Part shown: positions 14,016 through 54,342 of the stretch, piece by piece
Position numbering within the stretch: the stretch's first letter is position 1
Layout of the letters: each line of letters opens with the position of its first letter
DNA from: Escherichia phage LHE287
Sequence record: PP761450.1
Direction: 5' to 3' (one strand)
Length of the DNA stretch: 64,000 bases
Program-made: the position numbers and the translations under genes
The notes under the pieces: generated by a model
The model's database searches: none
What the model saw: the letters and a program-made list of their open reading frames with translations, nothing else
Told to the model about the DNA's origin: nothing

Positions 14016-15440
14016 CTAGAATTTCCAATTATTGACTGTTTGGGCTTTCTGCTCATCGCTGGCAGTAGCCCCGGACTTGTTGAGGTCATGTTTGATGTGT
14101 ACGTTTTCGACATATTTGGCCTCAGCCTCGGTCAGGTCCTTCTTAACTTCATTCCAGTCCAGGTCAAACAGGATCTGTTTGTCTTGGTCCATACCAAACA
14201 GGAATGATTTCAGCTTCTGCTTGTTGGCATAACGGTTCTTGAGTATTGAGGCTCGGGCTTTCTTGACCGCCGCCAGTTCGTCAGGAGCATAGAATGCCAT
14301 GATGAAGTCGGCCACCTTCGGAATACCGATAGCATCTGCCAAATCACTGATTCCACCATCAGTGCTATTCTGATTCTCACGATTGAACTGCATACCAGTC
14401 CATACAGGGACATCAAACTCAAATCCCAGCGCACGAAACTCACGAGCCACAGACGTGTAATAGACGTTCGTGTTCTGCATCAGGTGGGCAGGCAGGCGCG
14501 AGGAAGCAGCTTCGCCAAGATAGTCAATAACGATAACATCAGGAGCACGACCAGTTGCCTGGATGTACTCAAGGATATCGCGGCGGAATAAACCTGTGTG
14601 TCCAGTACCAGAAGGATATTCCTTGATGACGATATCACCCTTGGGCGCACCATCTTGGCGACTGCGGAGCTTCTCTATCGTTGCAATATACTCGTGCCTT
14701 GTGAGTTTCTCTAAAGACTCAAAGTCGCGTCGCATGATACGGGCATCAAGACGGTGTCGCCAGACGTTCTCAGCCACTTCAAGGGTGAAGACAAAGACGT
14801 TCAGCCCCTGCTCAGAGTACCCTGCGGTCAGGTCAATCAGCGTTGTGGTCTTACCTGCGTTGATCGCACCTGTTACGATGTTCAGTGTCTTCTTACCAAC
14901 GCCACCACGTGTCGCCTTATTGAAGATCTCAACTGCGAACGGGATCTTGGCCTCGTTGGAGTTCATGTGGTCATACTGCTCTGCCGCCATCTCCCAATAG
15001 ATGTGACCGAGGTATGAATCAAACCGGATCGCCAGGGCTTCCTGCAACATGGTCGGGATGTTGTTCATCTCGTCCTTGCGCTTCTCGTCACCGTAGATGT
15101 TAACGGCGGTCTTGATTGCGTTGTGTACGGCCTTTTGCCGCGCCCAAGCCTCGGTTTCCTTCGCCAGCCACTCTTCATTGAAGGTGTTGTCGTTGATGTT
15201 CTCCAGGGCAGATACCGCCTGGTCAAACACATATTCGTTCAGCTTTGTCCGTTCAAGAATTATAGATAGTGCTTCGACAGACGGGCGGGCATTGTACTCT
15301 GAGGTATAACTGTCAATCAGACCAAAGATGACCTTTTCGCCTTCGTTGTCAAAATAATCGGCTTTCAGGTACGGCAGGATCTTTCTTTGGTAATCTTCAT
15401 TGTAAATCAACTGTGAAAGCACGACAGATTCGAGTAACAT
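14016..15440 (-). CDS. 41: Replicative DNA helicase (DnaB-like, gp41)
   Basis: 474 aa; Walker A GAINAGKTT; T4 gp41-like length. Confidence 0.9.
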   Translation of the reverse strand: MLLESVVLSQLIYNEDYQRKILPYLKADYFDNEGEKVIFGLIDSYTSEYNARPSVEALSIILERTKLNEYVFDQAVSALENINDNTFNEEWLAKETEAWARQKAVHNAIKTAVNIYGDEKRKDEMNNIPTMLQEALAIRFDSYLGHIYWEMAAEQYDHMNSNEAKIPFAVEIFNKATRGGVGKKTLNIVTGAINAGKTTTLIDLTAGYSEQGLNVFVFTLEVAENVWRHRLDARIMRRDFESLEKLTRHEYIATIEKLRSRQDGAPKGDIVIKEYPSGTGHTGLFRRDILEYIQATGRAPDVIVIDYLGEAASSRLPAHLMQNTNVYYTSVAREFRALGFEFDVPVWTGMQFNRENQNSTDGGISDLADAIGIPKVADFIMAFYAPDELAAVKKARASILKNRYANKQKLKSFLFGMDQDKQILFDLDWNEVKKDLTEAEAKYVENVHIKHDLNKSGATASDEQKAQTVNNWKF

Positions 15441-51452: not shown

Positions 51453-52220
51453 ATGGCACCCCGCGCATATCGTTTCAGTCTCACCGCCCCGCAGATTGAG
51501 CAATTGCTCCTCTCTATCTATGATGCTATCAAGTCAGAAGATATCATCTATGATTATGCTGCAGGTGGGACTGCTGGACAAGTCGCAGCAGCGTCTGCTG
51601 TCAAGAACATGTGGTTGAAGCTCAACGAGATGGTGACAGGCCAAGGTCTCAAAGATGCCATCAACGATGCAGAAGACAGCAACGTGTTCACCGACTATTA
51701 TAAGTCTTTACTGGATCGCGAAGGTTGGAAATTTATTGGATCTCCAGCAGATGAACTTCAGCGAGGCGACATCGATACCTCGAACTTCACAGGTGGTGAG
51801 GTCATTCTACTTCAGAAGAACGCTTCAGGCAACCCGGAATTCCAATACTGGAAGCGAACCCCTGTTGCTGGGGGTGATCCTACCTTTGCATGGGCTTCGG
51901 TCTATGAAGGGAACTCCAATGATTCCAGCATAGAGATTCCCGTGGTTGGTACCAGCGTACTCAAGGACATCCCCAAGGCACTCTTCCATATGATCGAGTT
52001 CAGAGTGCATGTCTACGACGAGACACTGGGTCATTGGCAAGACACAGACGGGAAGGTAGGGTATCGTGGCGAGGATTTGATCTACAGTGTCTACAACCAT
52101 ATTCAGACCAAACCTCTCGCCACCATTGACTTCAGCCAAGATACGGACAATATGACGGTTTCTGTGACGTCGTTGGAACCGAATGTCAAGTGCCATCTGT
52201 CCTTCGTTGCGGGTTACTAA
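51453..52220 (+). CDS. Late protein of unknown function (255 aa), probably structural
   Basis: ATG at 51453 with RBS directly downstream of a late promoter; the track ORF from 51294 overlaps rnh. Confidence 0.55.
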   Translation: MAPRAYRFSLTAPQIEQLLLSIYDAIKSEDIIYDYAAGGTAGQVAAASAVKNMWLKLNEMVTGQGLKDAINDAEDSNVFTDYYKSLLDREGWKFIGSPADELQRGDIDTSNFTGGEVILLQKNASGNPEFQYWKRTPVAGGDPTFAWASVYEGNSNDSSIEIPVVGTSVLKDIPKALFHMIEFRVHVYDETLGHWQDTDGKVGYRGEDLIYSVYNHIQTKPLATIDFSQDTDNMTVSVTSLEPNVKCHLSFVAGY

Positions 52221-53935
52221 ACCTCAAACACGGCATCAGTGAACCAAGCGGGGAAGAACTCTGGGTTGCGCATCATCAGTGATTCAAAAGAAGAATCAAG
52301 GATGTACGTCGCAGCCCAGTCATTCACGCCCCTGACCGAACGCCCACACATCTGAACGATACGCAGTACCGCCATCCTGAAGTACGCCGATGGGTCCACA
52401 CTGTTGACGTGGGCCACCAGAGGATCACCAAGGTAATCGTATGGCACCTTGATCAAGATCTGAAATCGACTATAATCGCCTTTGAAGTCATACCCCTCTT
52501 CCATGGCCGGACTGGCGATGACACAAGGCGTCTTCGTCCTGAACGCGTGTTCCATGATGTCCATCAGAGCCTTACGAGTACGAGGAACGTGAATCATATT
52601 CCGGTACTTACTGAACTTTTGTAGAGCCAGGGCGCGGTCATAACTGACTGTGTGAATGATGCCAGACTGCCCAGGGTGGAACGCGATAATTTCATCCACG
52701 TATTCAGCCAGCTTCTTCATCTCGTAGTCGCCCATGTTCGCTGTCATCTTCATGATGGGCATGTAGTTGACTTTCCGGTTCTCAATCGGGATAGGGTTGC
52801 CGATCTGTATCTTGTGGTACTCACCCTCGCGGATACCCAGTGACCGGGCGTACGAGTCAATCCCACAAATGGTAGCCGACATGTGGACGTGGTAGTCACC
52901 CTTGCGGAACAGGCCGAACTGGGATACATCAGAGGCGATGACAGGCTTGAACTGAATCATACCCTTGTCCTTCTCCTGTACGATGAAAGTGCTGGCGTTG
53001 GTCTGCCCCATGATACCACAGTAGTCGCTGAGGTTGTGAAGATTATCAATAATATCAGACAGCTTCATCACCTGGGCTTCAGTCAGGCGCTCATCCTCTA
53101 CCAGTTCCTCAAGAGTTTCCAACAGGGCTTCAACCTTGCCGTGTAGTTCATCAAATATCGCATGCATCTCACCAGACAGGGAATACAGCTTGCCCAATTC
53201 ATAGTTCTCTGTGCGGGTGATGATATCCTTGATGGTCTCCACGATAGGCACTCCCTCGGGGATCGTAAGCAACCCTTCCACAGCCTTTATGTTGTATTCC
53301 ATGATCGTGTGCTCTAGGAGCGTAGAGGGCATTTTATGACACTCGTCAAGGATCAGCATATCGGCACGGTTTTCCGGCTTCATACAAATCGTCGTACACA
53401 TCTCCACCATCATGGCGGCGTTGGTGCAGCGCAGGGAGGAGACGTCGGTCCACTGTCGACGCGCCTGAACATATGGGCAACGATTCTTACTACAGTGGCC
53501 ATCACGGCATGCCATACGGCACTGAATGGCGTTGTAGTATAGGTCGGGACTGATGTGGCAACGGTAGTTCTTCTTGCCCTTCAGGATGTCTATCGCCACG
53601 GCTTTCTCTGCTGCATACTGATCCTGTAAACCTTTGGTCGGCGTCGTGATAGACGTGCGGAACTGACCATACGGGTTGTGCTCAAGAACCAAATGGCGAA
53701 GCACGTTATGGATGGTAGTGCCGATGAGGGATTTACCTACACCAGTCGGAGCCTCGATGATCACGTGTTTGAATTTCTTATTCACAAGGGCATCAATGGC
53801 TTCAACGATGCATTCCATCTGGCCGGGGTTGGCGGTGTCATACGGGAAGAACTCAGTGGCAAGAGACTTGATGCGGTCTATGCTGACTGGTCCGACGCCG
53901 TCAAGCGCCTTGGTATATTGGTTGAATGCTGTCAC
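52217..53935 (-). CDS. DinG/XPD (Rad3)-family Fe-S helicase
   Basis: Walker A APTGVGKS, DEAH-like LILDECHK, four-Cys cluster between helicase motifs (CHISPD...CRMACRDGHC...CPYVQ), C-terminal MCGRSVRG; strong RBS AGGAGGAAG before GTG start. Confidence 0.75.
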   Translation of the reverse strand: MTAFNQYTKALDGVGPVSIDRIKSLATEFFPYDTANPGQMECIVEAIDALVNKKFKHVIIEAPTGVGKSLIGTTIHNVLRHLVLEHNPYGQFRTSITTPTKGLQDQYAAEKAVAIDILKGKKNYRCHISPDLYYNAIQCRMACRDGHCSKNRCPYVQARRQWTDVSSLRCTNAAMMVEMCTTICMKPENRADMLILDECHKMPSTLLEHTIMEYNIKAVEGLLTIPEGVPIVETIKDIITRTENYELGKLYSLSGEMHAIFDELHGKVEALLETLEELVEDERLTEAQVMKLSDIIDNLHNLSDYCGIMGQTNASTFIVQEKDKGMIQFKPVIASDVSQFGLFRKGDYHVHMSATICGIDSYARSLGIREGEYHKIQIGNPIPIENRKVNYMPIMKMTANMGDYEMKKLAEYVDEIIAFHPGQSGIIHTVSYDRALALQKFSKYRNMIHVPRTRKALMDIMEHAFRTKTPCVIASPAMEEGYDFKGDYSRFQILIKVPYDYLGDPLVAHVNSVDPSAYFRMAVLRIVQMCGRSVRGVNDWAATYILDSSFESLMMRNPEFFPAWFTDAVFEV

Positions 53936-53990
53936 TTTCTTCCTCCTATGGGATTCGCCTATAGTTTACCCGATCCCCAAGAACGAAAAA

Positions 53991-54014
53991 GCCGGAGTAC
54001 AATGCTCCGGCTTT
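53991..54014. terminator. Bidirectional terminator hairpin
   Basis: GCCGGAG-TACAATG-CTCCGGC flanked by A-run and T-run. Confidence 0.55.
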
Positions 54015-54063
54015 CTCTTTGCCATGCCCTGTAATGCAGAGCCTGGCCGCGCGTCAGATAGAA

Positions 54064-54342
54064 TTACTTGCCGTTGGCAGCGTTCTTCAGACCTTCGCCC
54101 ACTTTGAATTTCACAACGTTTTTCGCCGCGATCTGAATGGTCTGGCCGTTCAGAGGGTTGCGACCTTCACGCGCTTCTTGGTGTTTAACTTCGAACGCAC
54201 CGAAGCCAACCAGCTGTACAGATGCGCCTGCAGCAACTGCAGTTTTAACACCGTCGATAAAGGATGCCACTACTTTCTCCGCTTCGCCTTTGGTGATATT
54301 CTGGGTCGAAGCAATGTGGGCAACAAATTCAGTACGATTCAT
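54064..54342 (-). CDS. HU/IHF-family DNA-binding protein
   Basis: 92 aa; HU fold signature (GFGAFEV...REGRNPLNGQTIQIAAKNVVKFKVG). Confidence 0.85.
   Translation of the reverse strand: MNRTEFVAHIASTQNITKGEAEKVVASFIDGVKTAVAAGASVQLVGFGAFEVKHQEAREGRNPLNGQTIQIAAKNVVKFKVGEGLKNAANGK

Follow-up and report, generated by a model that had tools for sequence, protein, structure and literature searches.

Introduction

In XPD or DinG, the cysteines of the iron-sulfur (Fe-S) module span approximately 50-86 residues. Unwinding by XPD requires the Fe-S domain, which together with the Arch domain makes a wedge; a 5'-3' direction is common to all of the Fe-S helicases that have been characterised (PMC3378879). 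A motif of four cysteines (CCCC) serves as a criterion for the Fe-S helicases of the XPD/Rad3/DinG group (PMC11981726). Viral helicases resembling Rad3 or DinG are already present in the databases, and the analysis reported here does not overturn current understanding. Our literature searches gave nothing specific for a characterised phage XPD/DinG helicase or for a study of an Ackermannviridae helicase, and biochemical work on the viral helicases grouped in phrog_2488 was not apparent in the literature searched. In a proteogenomics paper on a Vi01-like phage the protein appears only as a 'putative ATP-dependent helicase', and a 2026 review of Fe-S proteins mentions phage for lambda gpL only.

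Here we describe a helicase gene from a 64,000-nucleotide stretch of Escherichia phage LHE287 (PP761450.1), referred to below as the window. The phage is an Agtrevirus-like member of the Ackermannviridae, with 99% nucleotide identity to Salmonella phage vB_CECAV_050. We are confident that the gene product is a virus-type XPD/Rad3/DinG helicase, with a predicted Fe-S module and an expected 5'-3' polarity, that would act as an accessory helicase of T4-like replication, most likely in a role resembling that of Dda.

Results

An intact helicase gene conserved in the replication module

The features discussed below are collected in Table 1. The original prediction had described a 572-aa superfamily 2 (SF2) helicase, and exactly this open reading frame is present, complete with Walker A, Ia, DECH, SAT and QxxGRxxRG motifs. 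On the minus strand it runs from a GTG start (53935-53933) to a TAG stop (52219-52217), preceded by a ribosome-binding site whose GGAG core is kept in four other Ackermannviridae lineages. The protein matches the phrog_2488 profile almost from end to end (E 1e-259; residues 19-572 against profile positions 3-579 of 579). Distribution among related phages had been proposed as a check: the gene is single-copy and conserved across the Ackermannviridae, and in 241 phage records the gene at the same place is labelled 'DNA helicase' or 'ATP-dependent helicase'. This is an intact, genuine XPD/DinG-family DNA helicase gene. In Vi01-like (Ackermannviridae) phages it is a core gene of the replication module and already carries the label 'DNA helicase' in hundreds of genomes.

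Table 1. Positions in the window of the helicase gene, its motifs and domains, and the other genes and signals considered
Feature	Position	Strand	Details and basis
Helicase coding sequence	52217..53935	minus	572 aa; GTG start, TAG stop; open reading frame list, coordinates verified
Helicase ribosome-binding site AGGAGG	53942..53947	minus	6 nt 5' of GTG; sequence read
Motif I / Walker A APTGVGKS, residues 62-69	53729..53752	minus	Coordinates verified
Four-cysteine module (predicted 4Fe-4S), residues 126-153	53477..53560	minus	Conservation, DinG alignment
Motif II DECH (DExH box), residues 197-200	53336..53347	minus	Homolog conservation
Helical insertion in motor domain 1, residues ~212-335	52931..53302	minus	AF2 model; boundaries approximate
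Motor domain 2 segment (Helicase_C_2), residues 465-565, motifs V and VI	52241..52543	minus	Pfam
HU-like DNA-binding protein gene	54064..54342	minus	Pfam Bac_DNA_binding 6.1e-30; 'DNA binding protein' in relatives
Predicted intrinsic terminator, hairpin and T-tract	53980..54017	minus	Between HU and helicase; 13-bp stem, dG -22.1 kcal/mol
Virion structural protein gene, convergent	51453..52220	plus	PQ306799 annotation, sequence
gp41/DnaB-like helicase gene	14016-15440	minus	DnaB_C 4e-14

Motor motifs and predicted fold

Conservation of the motifs and cysteines was scored over 38 homologs, down to 35% identity. In Walker A, residues A62, P63, T64, G65, G67 and K68 are invariant, as are D197, E198 and H200 of the DECH box, whose cysteine (C199) is found in 35 of the 38. 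Across the wider family motif II reads DECH in 166 cases, DEAH in 42, DESH in 11 and DEGH in 3. Motif Ia (TPTKGLQDQY, residues 98-107), the SAT motif (residues 353-355), an EEGYD motif and QxxGRxxRG (residues 528-536) are all invariant or nearly so. The second motor domain is recognised by Pfam Helicase_C_2 (PF13307; E 4.8e-12; score 46.7 bits, cut-off 25.3), and its residues G481, D483, D487, R490, Q528, G531, R532 and R535 do not vary. Matches to the Pfam DEAD and ResIII families also exceed their cut-offs.

The segment between motifs II and III forms three long helices (226-241, 255-279 and 286-311) and a beta-hairpin (316-331) in an AF2 model of the protein (pLDDT 90, pTM 0.88). By position and character this insert of ~120 residues corresponds, in the model, to the Arch domain of XPD and DinG; the likeness is one of fold rather than of sequence, the Pfam HBB (Arch) match being weak (E 0.1). 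Solved XPD/DinG structures are the closest to the overall predicted fold, and they match over the full length: 365-482 residues align, as against ~300 in a generic SF2 core. All 572 residues can be assigned to one of the two motor domains, the FeS module or the Arch insert, and this accounting, from the model and fold matches, leaves no fused nuclease domain.

Relationship to DinG, YoaA and XPD

The original prediction had assigned the protein to the Rad3/XPD/DinG family, and had named a profile search as the result that might move it to a family lacking an Fe-S domain. The searches point instead to the XPD/Rad3/DinG group: Pfam Helicase_C_2, the NCBIfam models and the PDB profile matches all agree. 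In NCBIfam the sole named relatives are DinG (1.2e-18), YoaA (2.2e-15) and Rad3 (2e-5), while a family profile run against the PDB finds E. coli DinG at 5.7e-20 and archaeal (T. acidophilum) XPD at 3e-14. A DinG model of PADLOC matches as well (2.8e-51). These comparisons of sequence support placing the phage helicase within the XPD/Rad3/DinG group of SF2.

The closest single match, both by sequence and by Foldseek (E 3e-26, TM 0.65), is E. coli DinG (PDB 6FWR/6FWS). Bacterial DinG and YoaA have the same four-domain layout as the phage helicase, in the order motor domain 1, FeS module, Arch and motor domain 2, and DinG shares with it a DExH box and a C-terminal Helicase_C_2 domain. However, identity to DinG is only ~16-18%, the phage protein is shorter (572 versus 716 aa), its motif II reads DECH where DinG has DEAH, and unlike DinG and YoaA it belongs to a viral T4-like replication module and is not SOS-regulated. 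The NCBIfam equivalogs were not reached, either for bacterial DinG (NF008729; 66.9 bits against a cut-off of 598) or for YoaA (NF053712; 56.4 against 680). Since these scores lie far below the cut-offs, the phage helicase is not an ortholog of either protein. Further criteria for YoaA are a C-terminal alpha7 helix and a HolC (chi) gene in the same genome (PMC11981726); no HolC-like gene is annotated in the sister genome PQ306799. The archaeal and eukaryotic XPD/Rad3 enzymes compared (PDB 3CRV, 2VSF/4A15 and 2VL7; TFIIH XPD) are 14-16% identical to the phage protein, which has a much tighter cysteine spacing, lacks TFIIH partners and is found in a viral replication context rather than one of nucleotide excision repair or transcription.

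With respect to the viral 'Rad3-related / DinG' helicases of phrog_2488, nothing essential differs. Length, motifs, the four-cysteine insert and the kind of neighbourhood, a replication module, are the same, apart from an extra, non-conserved cysteine (C143) in the phage helicase. These proteins occur in Ackermannviridae, in Vibrio, Rhizobium and Acinetobacter phages, in Delftia phage PhiW-14, in Bacillus phage G and in haloarchaeal Hafunaviridae.

Two further DinG-like classes were considered as identities and rejected: sDinG, which consists of the two motor domains and Arch, with no FeS domain and a degenerate ATP site where the phage protein has an FeS-type insert and an intact site, and CasDinG, for which there is no cas context and whose cluster cysteines are missing. 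The second bears on a functional alternative, namely that the gene is a captured CRISPR-type DinG (CasDinG/Csf4-like) used for interference or anti-defence rather than replication. Indeed, the PADLOC model PDLC01439 ('typeIV_DinG; CAS-IV-A associated') matches the protein end to end with E 2.8e-51, above any canonical DinG model, and CasDinG structures are among the fold matches. That model may, however, be a broad Rad3/DinG profile. Canonical Csf4 models score weakly (6e-7 and 3e-4; NCBIfam cas_csf4 0.051). Moreover, no cas genes or arrays lie near the helicase in the window or in ~10 related loci, where the neighbours are all replication or virion genes, and conservation as a single-copy gene across a whole family does not favour a captured interference gene. 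CasDinG/Csf4 itself has a vestigial FeS region without cluster cysteines and an essential N-terminal domain, whereas the phage helicase has four invariant cysteines. We therefore consider a CRISPR-type origin very improbable.

A compact four-cysteine insert

The original prediction of a four-cysteine cluster inserted between helicase motifs was borne out. After the NYxC strand that follows motif Ia, and ahead of motif II, five cysteines lie within 28 residues (C126, C139, C143, C148 and C153). Four of them, C126, C139, C148 and C153, are invariant in all 38 homologs, giving the spacing C126-x12-C139-x8-C148-x4-C153 followed by a P-Y..AR signature. In contrast, C143 is variable: it is present in 14 of the 38 and is common to the enterobacterial clade. 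At least four cysteines are found in the insert of 220 of the 222 representatives of the wider family, a retention that far exceeds chance, and the same holds for homologs from a Rhizobium phage, a haloarchaeal virus and Bacillus phage G. The phage protein thus has the four conserved cysteines, inserted between motifs Ia and II, that the CCCC criterion describes. Additionally, for P0061, a relative that is 38% identical, a match to PF06733 had been precomputed.

In the family profile, the last two of the invariant cysteines, C148 and C153, correspond to C199 and C205 of DinG, with the CP[YF]..AR signature likewise in register. The second ligand is out of register: C143 aligns to DinG C194, and the invariant C139 lies one helical turn (four residues) earlier. 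A single-sequence phmmer pairing had suggested C143 as the counterpart of C194, but we rejected this, since conservation shows C139 to be the invariant position and C143 to be dispensable. The module is also much shorter, with 28 residues from first to last cysteine compared with 86 in DinG (C120-C205). This short span and the shifted second ligand suggest that the geometry of the cluster may differ from that in XPD and DinG.

The same two features raise the question of whether the cysteines might form a structural zinc site, or be merely structural, in an XPD-fold helicase that has no Fe-S cluster; cluster-less members of the superfamily are indeed known (CasDinG, S. aureus DinG, sDinG and Hna). 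Those members, however, are without the cysteines, whereas the phage family keeps them across more than 1,000 sequence clusters, and both the position of the insert and the CP[YF]..AR signature match Fe-S-binding relatives. Four cysteines at the corresponding site hold a 4Fe-4S cluster in every family member tested (PMC3378879). We consequently regard a zinc or purely structural site as unlikely and predict, from homology and conservation, that the four-cysteine module binds a 4Fe-4S cluster.

A proposed mechanism

The phage helicase has two RecA-like motor domains, the first of which carries two insertions: the compact four-cysteine module, in which C126, C139, C148 and C153 are predicted to hold the cluster, and the helical Arch-like domain. 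By analogy with XPD and DinG, it would be expected to be an ATPase that binds single-stranded DNA and travels along it in the 5'-3' direction. One strand would be threaded through a channel that motor domain 1 forms with the Arch domain and the cluster module, and the cluster module would act as a wedge to split the duplex. Both this polarity and the unwinding mechanism are extrapolated from the characterised enzymes.

Not every member of the superfamily unwinds DNA. Members that have no helicase activity include sDinG and S. aureus DinG (PMC3270479). The phage protein might then be a translocase or a regulatory ATPase, or might act mainly on RNA-DNA hybrids or in transcription instead of replication, a possibility to which its proximity to the genes for the late sigma factor gp55 and RNase H lends some weight. 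DinG is reported to remove R-loops and to aid replication through transcription units (PMC2770101). However, the ATP-binding and coupling motifs and the cysteines of the wedge module are all invariant in the phage helicase, whereas sDinG has lost its ATP-binding residues; the protein has no fused nuclease domain and is fully assigned to helicase domains; and R-loop removal is itself a helicase activity, compatible with accessory helicase function. There is thus only a small chance, in our judgement, that the protein is a non-unwinding motor or that its work lies chiefly outside replication.

A proposed accessory helicase in a T4-like replisome

As originally predicted, a gp41-type replicative helicase is encoded elsewhere in the window. 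The window has the gene order helicase, RNase H, gp55, SbcD/gp47, SbcC/gp46, which persists as far as a Vibrio phage with 45% identity, and in relatives the helicase gene adjoins genes for a DnaB-like helicase, UvsX and DNA polymerase B, or for clamp loader, primase or exonuclease. We propose that the protein serves as an accessory helicase within a T4-like replication and recombination apparatus comprising a gp41-like helicase, a gp59-like loader, primase, gp43, gp45, gp44/62, gp32, UvsX, UvsY, UvsW and gp46/47. Its most likely role would be the one that T4 gives to the 5'-3' helicase Dda: to clear the path of forks of proteins, RNA polymerase or R-loops and to assist recombination-dependent replication.

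Dda is an SF1B enzyme with a different fold and no Fe-S cluster, and thus belongs to a superfamily unrelated to that of the SF2, XPD-type phage helicase. The proposed likeness is functional: each is a non-replicative helicase, known or expected to move 5'-3', and each works beside gp41-like and UvsW helicases in a replisome of the T4 type. The original prediction held that T4 uses Dda and UvsW instead of this helicase. With regard to Dda this appears to stand, as neither the annotation of the sister genome PQ306799 nor a strict Walker A regular expression gave a Dda-type open reading frame there; since the expression misses non-canonical P-loops (UvsW itself was missed), we call the absence of Dda probable. 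With regard to UvsW it does not, because the same near-identical genome encodes, outside the window, a true UvsW homolog (E 5e-76 against T4 UvsW, PDB 2OCA). It has a DnaB-like helicase too. The phage helicase therefore fills at most the Dda slot. The case for a Dda-like role is argued from the expected polarity and the gene inventory, to which a role like that of YoaA or DinG (giving the clamp loader access to 3' ends, or removing R-loops) would fit equally well.

A broader reading, which we offer tentatively and consider rather less probable than its converse, is that these helicases form a large, essentially virus-specific XPD/DinG clade (at least 1,100 clusters at 50% identity). No known cluster module in the superfamily would be more compact than its C-x12-C-x8-C-x4-C arrangement, with the second ligand one helical turn off that of DinG. 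In T4-type replisomes of the Ackermannviridae and of several other phage and archaeal-virus lineages, its members would have taken over from Dda, an SF1B enzyme, the part of 5'-3' accessory helicase. If this were true, T4-like replisomes might place an Fe-S helicase where T4 has Dda, and replication of the phage genome would be tied to host Fe-S biogenesis, depending on Isc/Suf assembly and on iron and redox status. The 28-residue module could also serve as a minimal model of Fe-S wedge action in XPD-family enzymes. At a more practical level, the generic label 'DNA helicase', found in hundreds of therapeutic-candidate Ackermannviridae genomes, can be narrowed to a predicted XPD/DinG-type helicase, Fe-S dependent and probably 5'-3'.

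Flanking genes and a conserved hairpin

The neighbour of the helicase gene is indeed an HU-like gene, but the original description of the helicase as lying upstream of HU behind a shared terminator has to be reversed. As the two genes share the minus strand, transcription passes HU first, and the hairpin stands between them. It would thus end HU transcripts before the helicase rather than serve both genes, and we found no terminator at the helicase 3' end. A consensus terminator scan missed this hairpin, which was established by reading the sequence, folding and alignment; its stem is kept through compensatory changes in five Ackermannviridae lineages. As judged from these features, the hairpin appears to act on HU transcripts and to gate read-through into the helicase gene. 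Literature searches for transcript timing in Ackermannviridae gave nothing specific. A conserved block past the terminator, GGGTAAACTATA, was considered as a recurrent promoter motif and rejected, as its recurrence was not significant (five matches with up to two mismatches against 1.9 expected, and a single exact match).

Finally, at the other end of the gene, the stop codon of the convergent virion structural protein gene overlaps that of the helicase by 4 nt, as it also does in the annotations of four other lineages.

Sequence and fold place the phage helicase in the XPD/DinG family

The ORF list returned a 572-aa reading frame on the minus strand, with exactly the coordinates and length originally predicted. 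It ends in TAG and opens with a GTG that lies 6 nt downstream of an AGGAGG ribosome-binding site; this start is supported because homologs begin at the same place. Along its full length the product belongs to phrog_2488 'DNA helicase' (E 1e-259). Three Pfam models, Helicase_C_2 (PF13307; 4.8e-12), ResIII and DEAD, exceeded their gathering scores; the first of these describes the C-terminal domain that characterises the XPD/DinG group. The only NCBIfam models to match were DinG (1.2e-18), YoaA (2.2e-15), DinG-related and Rad3, all with scores far under the equivalog cut-offs, which indicates a relative of DinG and YoaA, not an ortholog. Against solved structures, a profile of 38 homologs retrieved E. 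coli DinG (5.7e-20) and Thermoplasma XPD (3e-14), and also matched yeast Rad3, human XPD, CHL1, FANCJ and Sulfolobus XPD. For one homolog, P0061 (38% identity), there is a precomputed PF06733 match, and some sources name relatives 'Rad3-related DNA helicase' or 'DinG'.

The 38-sequence alignment also yielded a confident AlphaFold2 model (mean pLDDT 90, pTM 0.88), which had no disordered segments. When it was compared with the PDB by Foldseek, the first 44 matches were all of the XPD/DinG/CasDinG/Hna type, with E. coli DinG (E 3.2e-26, TM 0.65), Finegoldia DinG and archaeal XPD at the top. The model contains a mainly helical insertion of ~120 residues (212-335) between motifs II and III, the same site as the Arch domain of XPD and DinG. 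Viral relatives in BFVD included 'DinG Rad3-related DNA helicases [uncultured Caudovirales phage]', Rhizobium and Sinorhizobium phage helicases and a Sulfolobus virus ORF. The predicted family placement is thus borne out by Pfam, NCBIfam, structure-profile and fold matches alike. Judged by sequence and model, this viral protein is a genuine XPD/DinG-family Fe-S helicase, with a predicted cluster.

One profile pointed elsewhere. PADLOC PDLC01439 ('typeIV_DinG; CAS-IV-A associated', 575 positions) matched the helicase end to end (E 2.8e-51), which would fit a DinG with a type IV CRISPR role. However, canonical Csf4 models matched only weakly (around 1e-6), CasDinG lacks the cluster cysteines that the phage protein has, and no cas genes were seen in the window or in related loci of distant relatives. 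A CRISPR-type role is therefore very improbable, and PDLC01439 may cover Rad3/DinG proteins broadly or include phage-like sequences.

Coordinates of the helicase gene, its motifs and the features discussed
Feature	Position	Strand	Remark
gp41/DnaB-like helicase	14016-15440	minus	in window
Convergent virion structural protein gene	51453-52220	plus	
Overlap of stop codons	52217-52220		CTAA/TTAG
XPD/DinG-type helicase	52217-53935	minus	572 aa
C143 codon	53507-53509		
Block GGGTAAACTATA	53960-53971	minus	
Terminator hairpin	53980-54017	minus	
HU	54064-54342	minus	neighbour of helicase
Motif Ia (TPTKGLQDQY)	residues 98-107		helicase
Motif II (DECH)	residues 197-200		helicase

A compact four-cysteine module and invariant motor motifs

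The stretch between motif Ia and motif II reads NYRC126-HISPDLYYNAIQ-C139-RMA-C143-RDGH-C148-SKNR-C153-PYVQARRQW. The four-cysteine insert of the original prediction is present, and C126, C139, C148 and C153 are invariant in the 38 homologs, down to 35% identity. Only 14 of these, mostly the closest enterobacterial-phage relatives, have a cysteine at position 143, which is V, L, I, K or R elsewhere. Profile alignment pairs C148 and C153 with DinG C199 and C205 in a common C-x5-CP[YF]..AR signature, and the DinG cluster ligand C194 with the variable position 143. The invariant C139 lies four residues, or one helical turn, before that position in the same predicted helix (137-144). Ligand swapping is possible. 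In a wider survey of 222 representatives with a locatable Walker A and DExH, at least four cysteines were found in the insert of 220, and the C..C..C..C spacing pattern in 206; distant homologs from Rhizobium phage RHph_TM3_3_6, haloarchaeal virus HCTV-10 and Bacillus phage G also have at least four. First and last cysteines span 28 residues here, compared with 86 in DinG and ~50-75 in XPDs; the predicted module is unusually compact. It is unlikely that the four cysteines bind zinc instead of an Fe-S cluster, judging from the homology and from what became of the cysteines in relatives without a cluster.

In the 38 homologs every ATPase and coupling motif is invariant. This argues for an active motor, unlike the degenerate relative sDinG or CasDinG, from which the cluster cysteines are absent, and leaves little probability for a motor that does not unwind. 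XPD can bind ssDNA and hydrolyse ATP without its Fe-S domain but needs it for unwinding; the domain forms a wedge together with the Arch domain, and every Fe-S helicase characterised unwinds 5'-3' (PMC3378879). A 2025 review takes as hallmarks of DinG-like proteins two motor domains, an Arch domain, and a CCCC motif within an FeS domain (PMC11981726). The phage protein shows every sequence- and fold-level hallmark; its cluster binding and polarity are predictions.

A conserved replication-module gene of Ackermannviridae

At the DNA level the gene is 99.2% identical to that of Salmonella phage vB_CECAV_050 (PQ306799; Ackermannviridae, Aglimvirinae, Agtrevirus), 93-99% identical to those of other Agtrevirus-type phages, and matched over its full length in 241 phage records. 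The window therefore belongs to a Vi01-like phage genome whose replication apparatus is T4-like. The helicase is already in public records under generic annotation ('DNA helicase', 'ATP-dependent helicase' or 'hypothetical protein'), and a Vi01-like proteogenomics paper enters it only as 'putative ATP-dependent helicase'. In the literature searched, we found no characterisation of it or of any phage XPD/DinG-type helicase. When 1.84 billion cluster representatives were searched exhaustively with HMMER, 1,133 family clusters matched at E <= 1e-30, and the number rose to 4,444 at E <= 1e-10. Matches occurred in 497 of 50,697 records of a phage collection, from Ackermannviridae, Vibrio, Rhizobium, Delftia PhiW-14, Acinetobacter, jumbo and haloarchaeal Hafunaviridae phages; the organism tally of these 497 held no T4-type (Tequatrovirus) records.

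Both the predicted gp41 replicative helicase in the window and HU beside the gene were found. On the minus strand the order is HU, terminator, helicase, the convergent virion gene, RNase H, gp55 (the late sigma factor), SbcD/gp47-like and SbcC/gp46-like. Vibrio phage D533, with a helicase only 45% identical, keeps the order helicase, RNase H, gp55, SbcD, SbcC. More distant homologs adjoin clamp-loader genes in Aeromonas phiA8-29 and Bacillus phage G, an exonuclease gene in Acinetobacter nACB2, and genes for primase, exonuclease and DNA polymerase A in a Rhizobium phage. On a T4-like metagenomic contig, a 38%-identical homolog directly follows a DnaB-like helicase, near UvsX, DNA polymerase B and RegA. 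The helicase is a conserved replication-module gene of Ackermannviridae. The UvsX/RecA-like gene of that contig (L016/L017, 4066-6295) is apparently split into consecutive ORFs: RecA_N with HINT (intein-like), a NUMOD3 endonuclease and a separate T4_UVSX_C.

A proposed third helicase beside UvsW

The original prediction held that T4 uses Dda and UvsW instead of such an enzyme. The contrast drawn over UvsW did not stand, because this lineage has one too: outside the window, the near-identical sister genome encodes a 502-aa homolog of T4 UvsW (2OCA; E 5e-76) at PQ306799.1 90216-91724, adjoining exonuclease and UvsY genes. The Dda part appears to hold: no Dda-type SF1B helicase is annotated across the whole of PQ306799. 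Dda-like Walker A ORFs comprised only the DnaB-like helicase, PhoH, the present helicase and a few unrelated proteins, by a strict pattern that misses atypical P-loops. The most reasonable reading, therefore, is of the Fe-S helicase as the third of the system, in the slot of the 5'-3' helicase Dda. Of most interest are its minimal predicted cluster module and this possible replacement of Dda, which would bring dependence on host Fe-S assembly.

A terminator separates HU from the helicase

A hairpin, GAGAAAGCCGGAG-CATTGTA-CTCCGGCTTTTTC (-22 kcal/mol), lies 3' of HU and 5' of the helicase. Both genes are on the minus strand, and it stands between them and is not shared, contrary to what had been proposed. 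Compensatory substitutions keep the stem in Kuttervirus, a Klebsiella phage, Miltonvirus and CRW-SP2 (five Ackermannviridae lineages including the window), indicating a functional terminator. Expression of the helicase must then rely on read-through or on a promoter in the following 45 nt. Between the hairpin and the ribosome-binding site, the block GGGTAAACTATA has an invariant core in five genera and does not recur as a repeated motif within the window, making it a candidate gene-specific promoter or regulatory site.

At its other end, the helicase TAG overlaps the TAA of the structural gene by 4 nt. The overlap holds across genera, being annotated likewise in Kuttervirus bering, Klebsiella phage phi1_146021, Serratia phage Kevin and CRW-SP2. 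The helicase itself lacks a terminator, and none lies between the two convergent genes. The stem of the HU-helicase terminator is flanked by an A-tract on its 5' side and a T-tract on its 3' side, so that the terminator might act in both directions and, if it did, would also halt antisense transcripts running from the structural gene through the helicase.

Finally, the coordinate offset between the window and the 99%-identical PQ306799 shifts by 1,294 bp on the way from the DnaB-like gene to the helicase gene (window ~15440-52217; PQ306799.1 32019-70090), indicating at least one insertion or deletion between the two phages in that interval. Several homing endonuclease genes are present in the sister genome.
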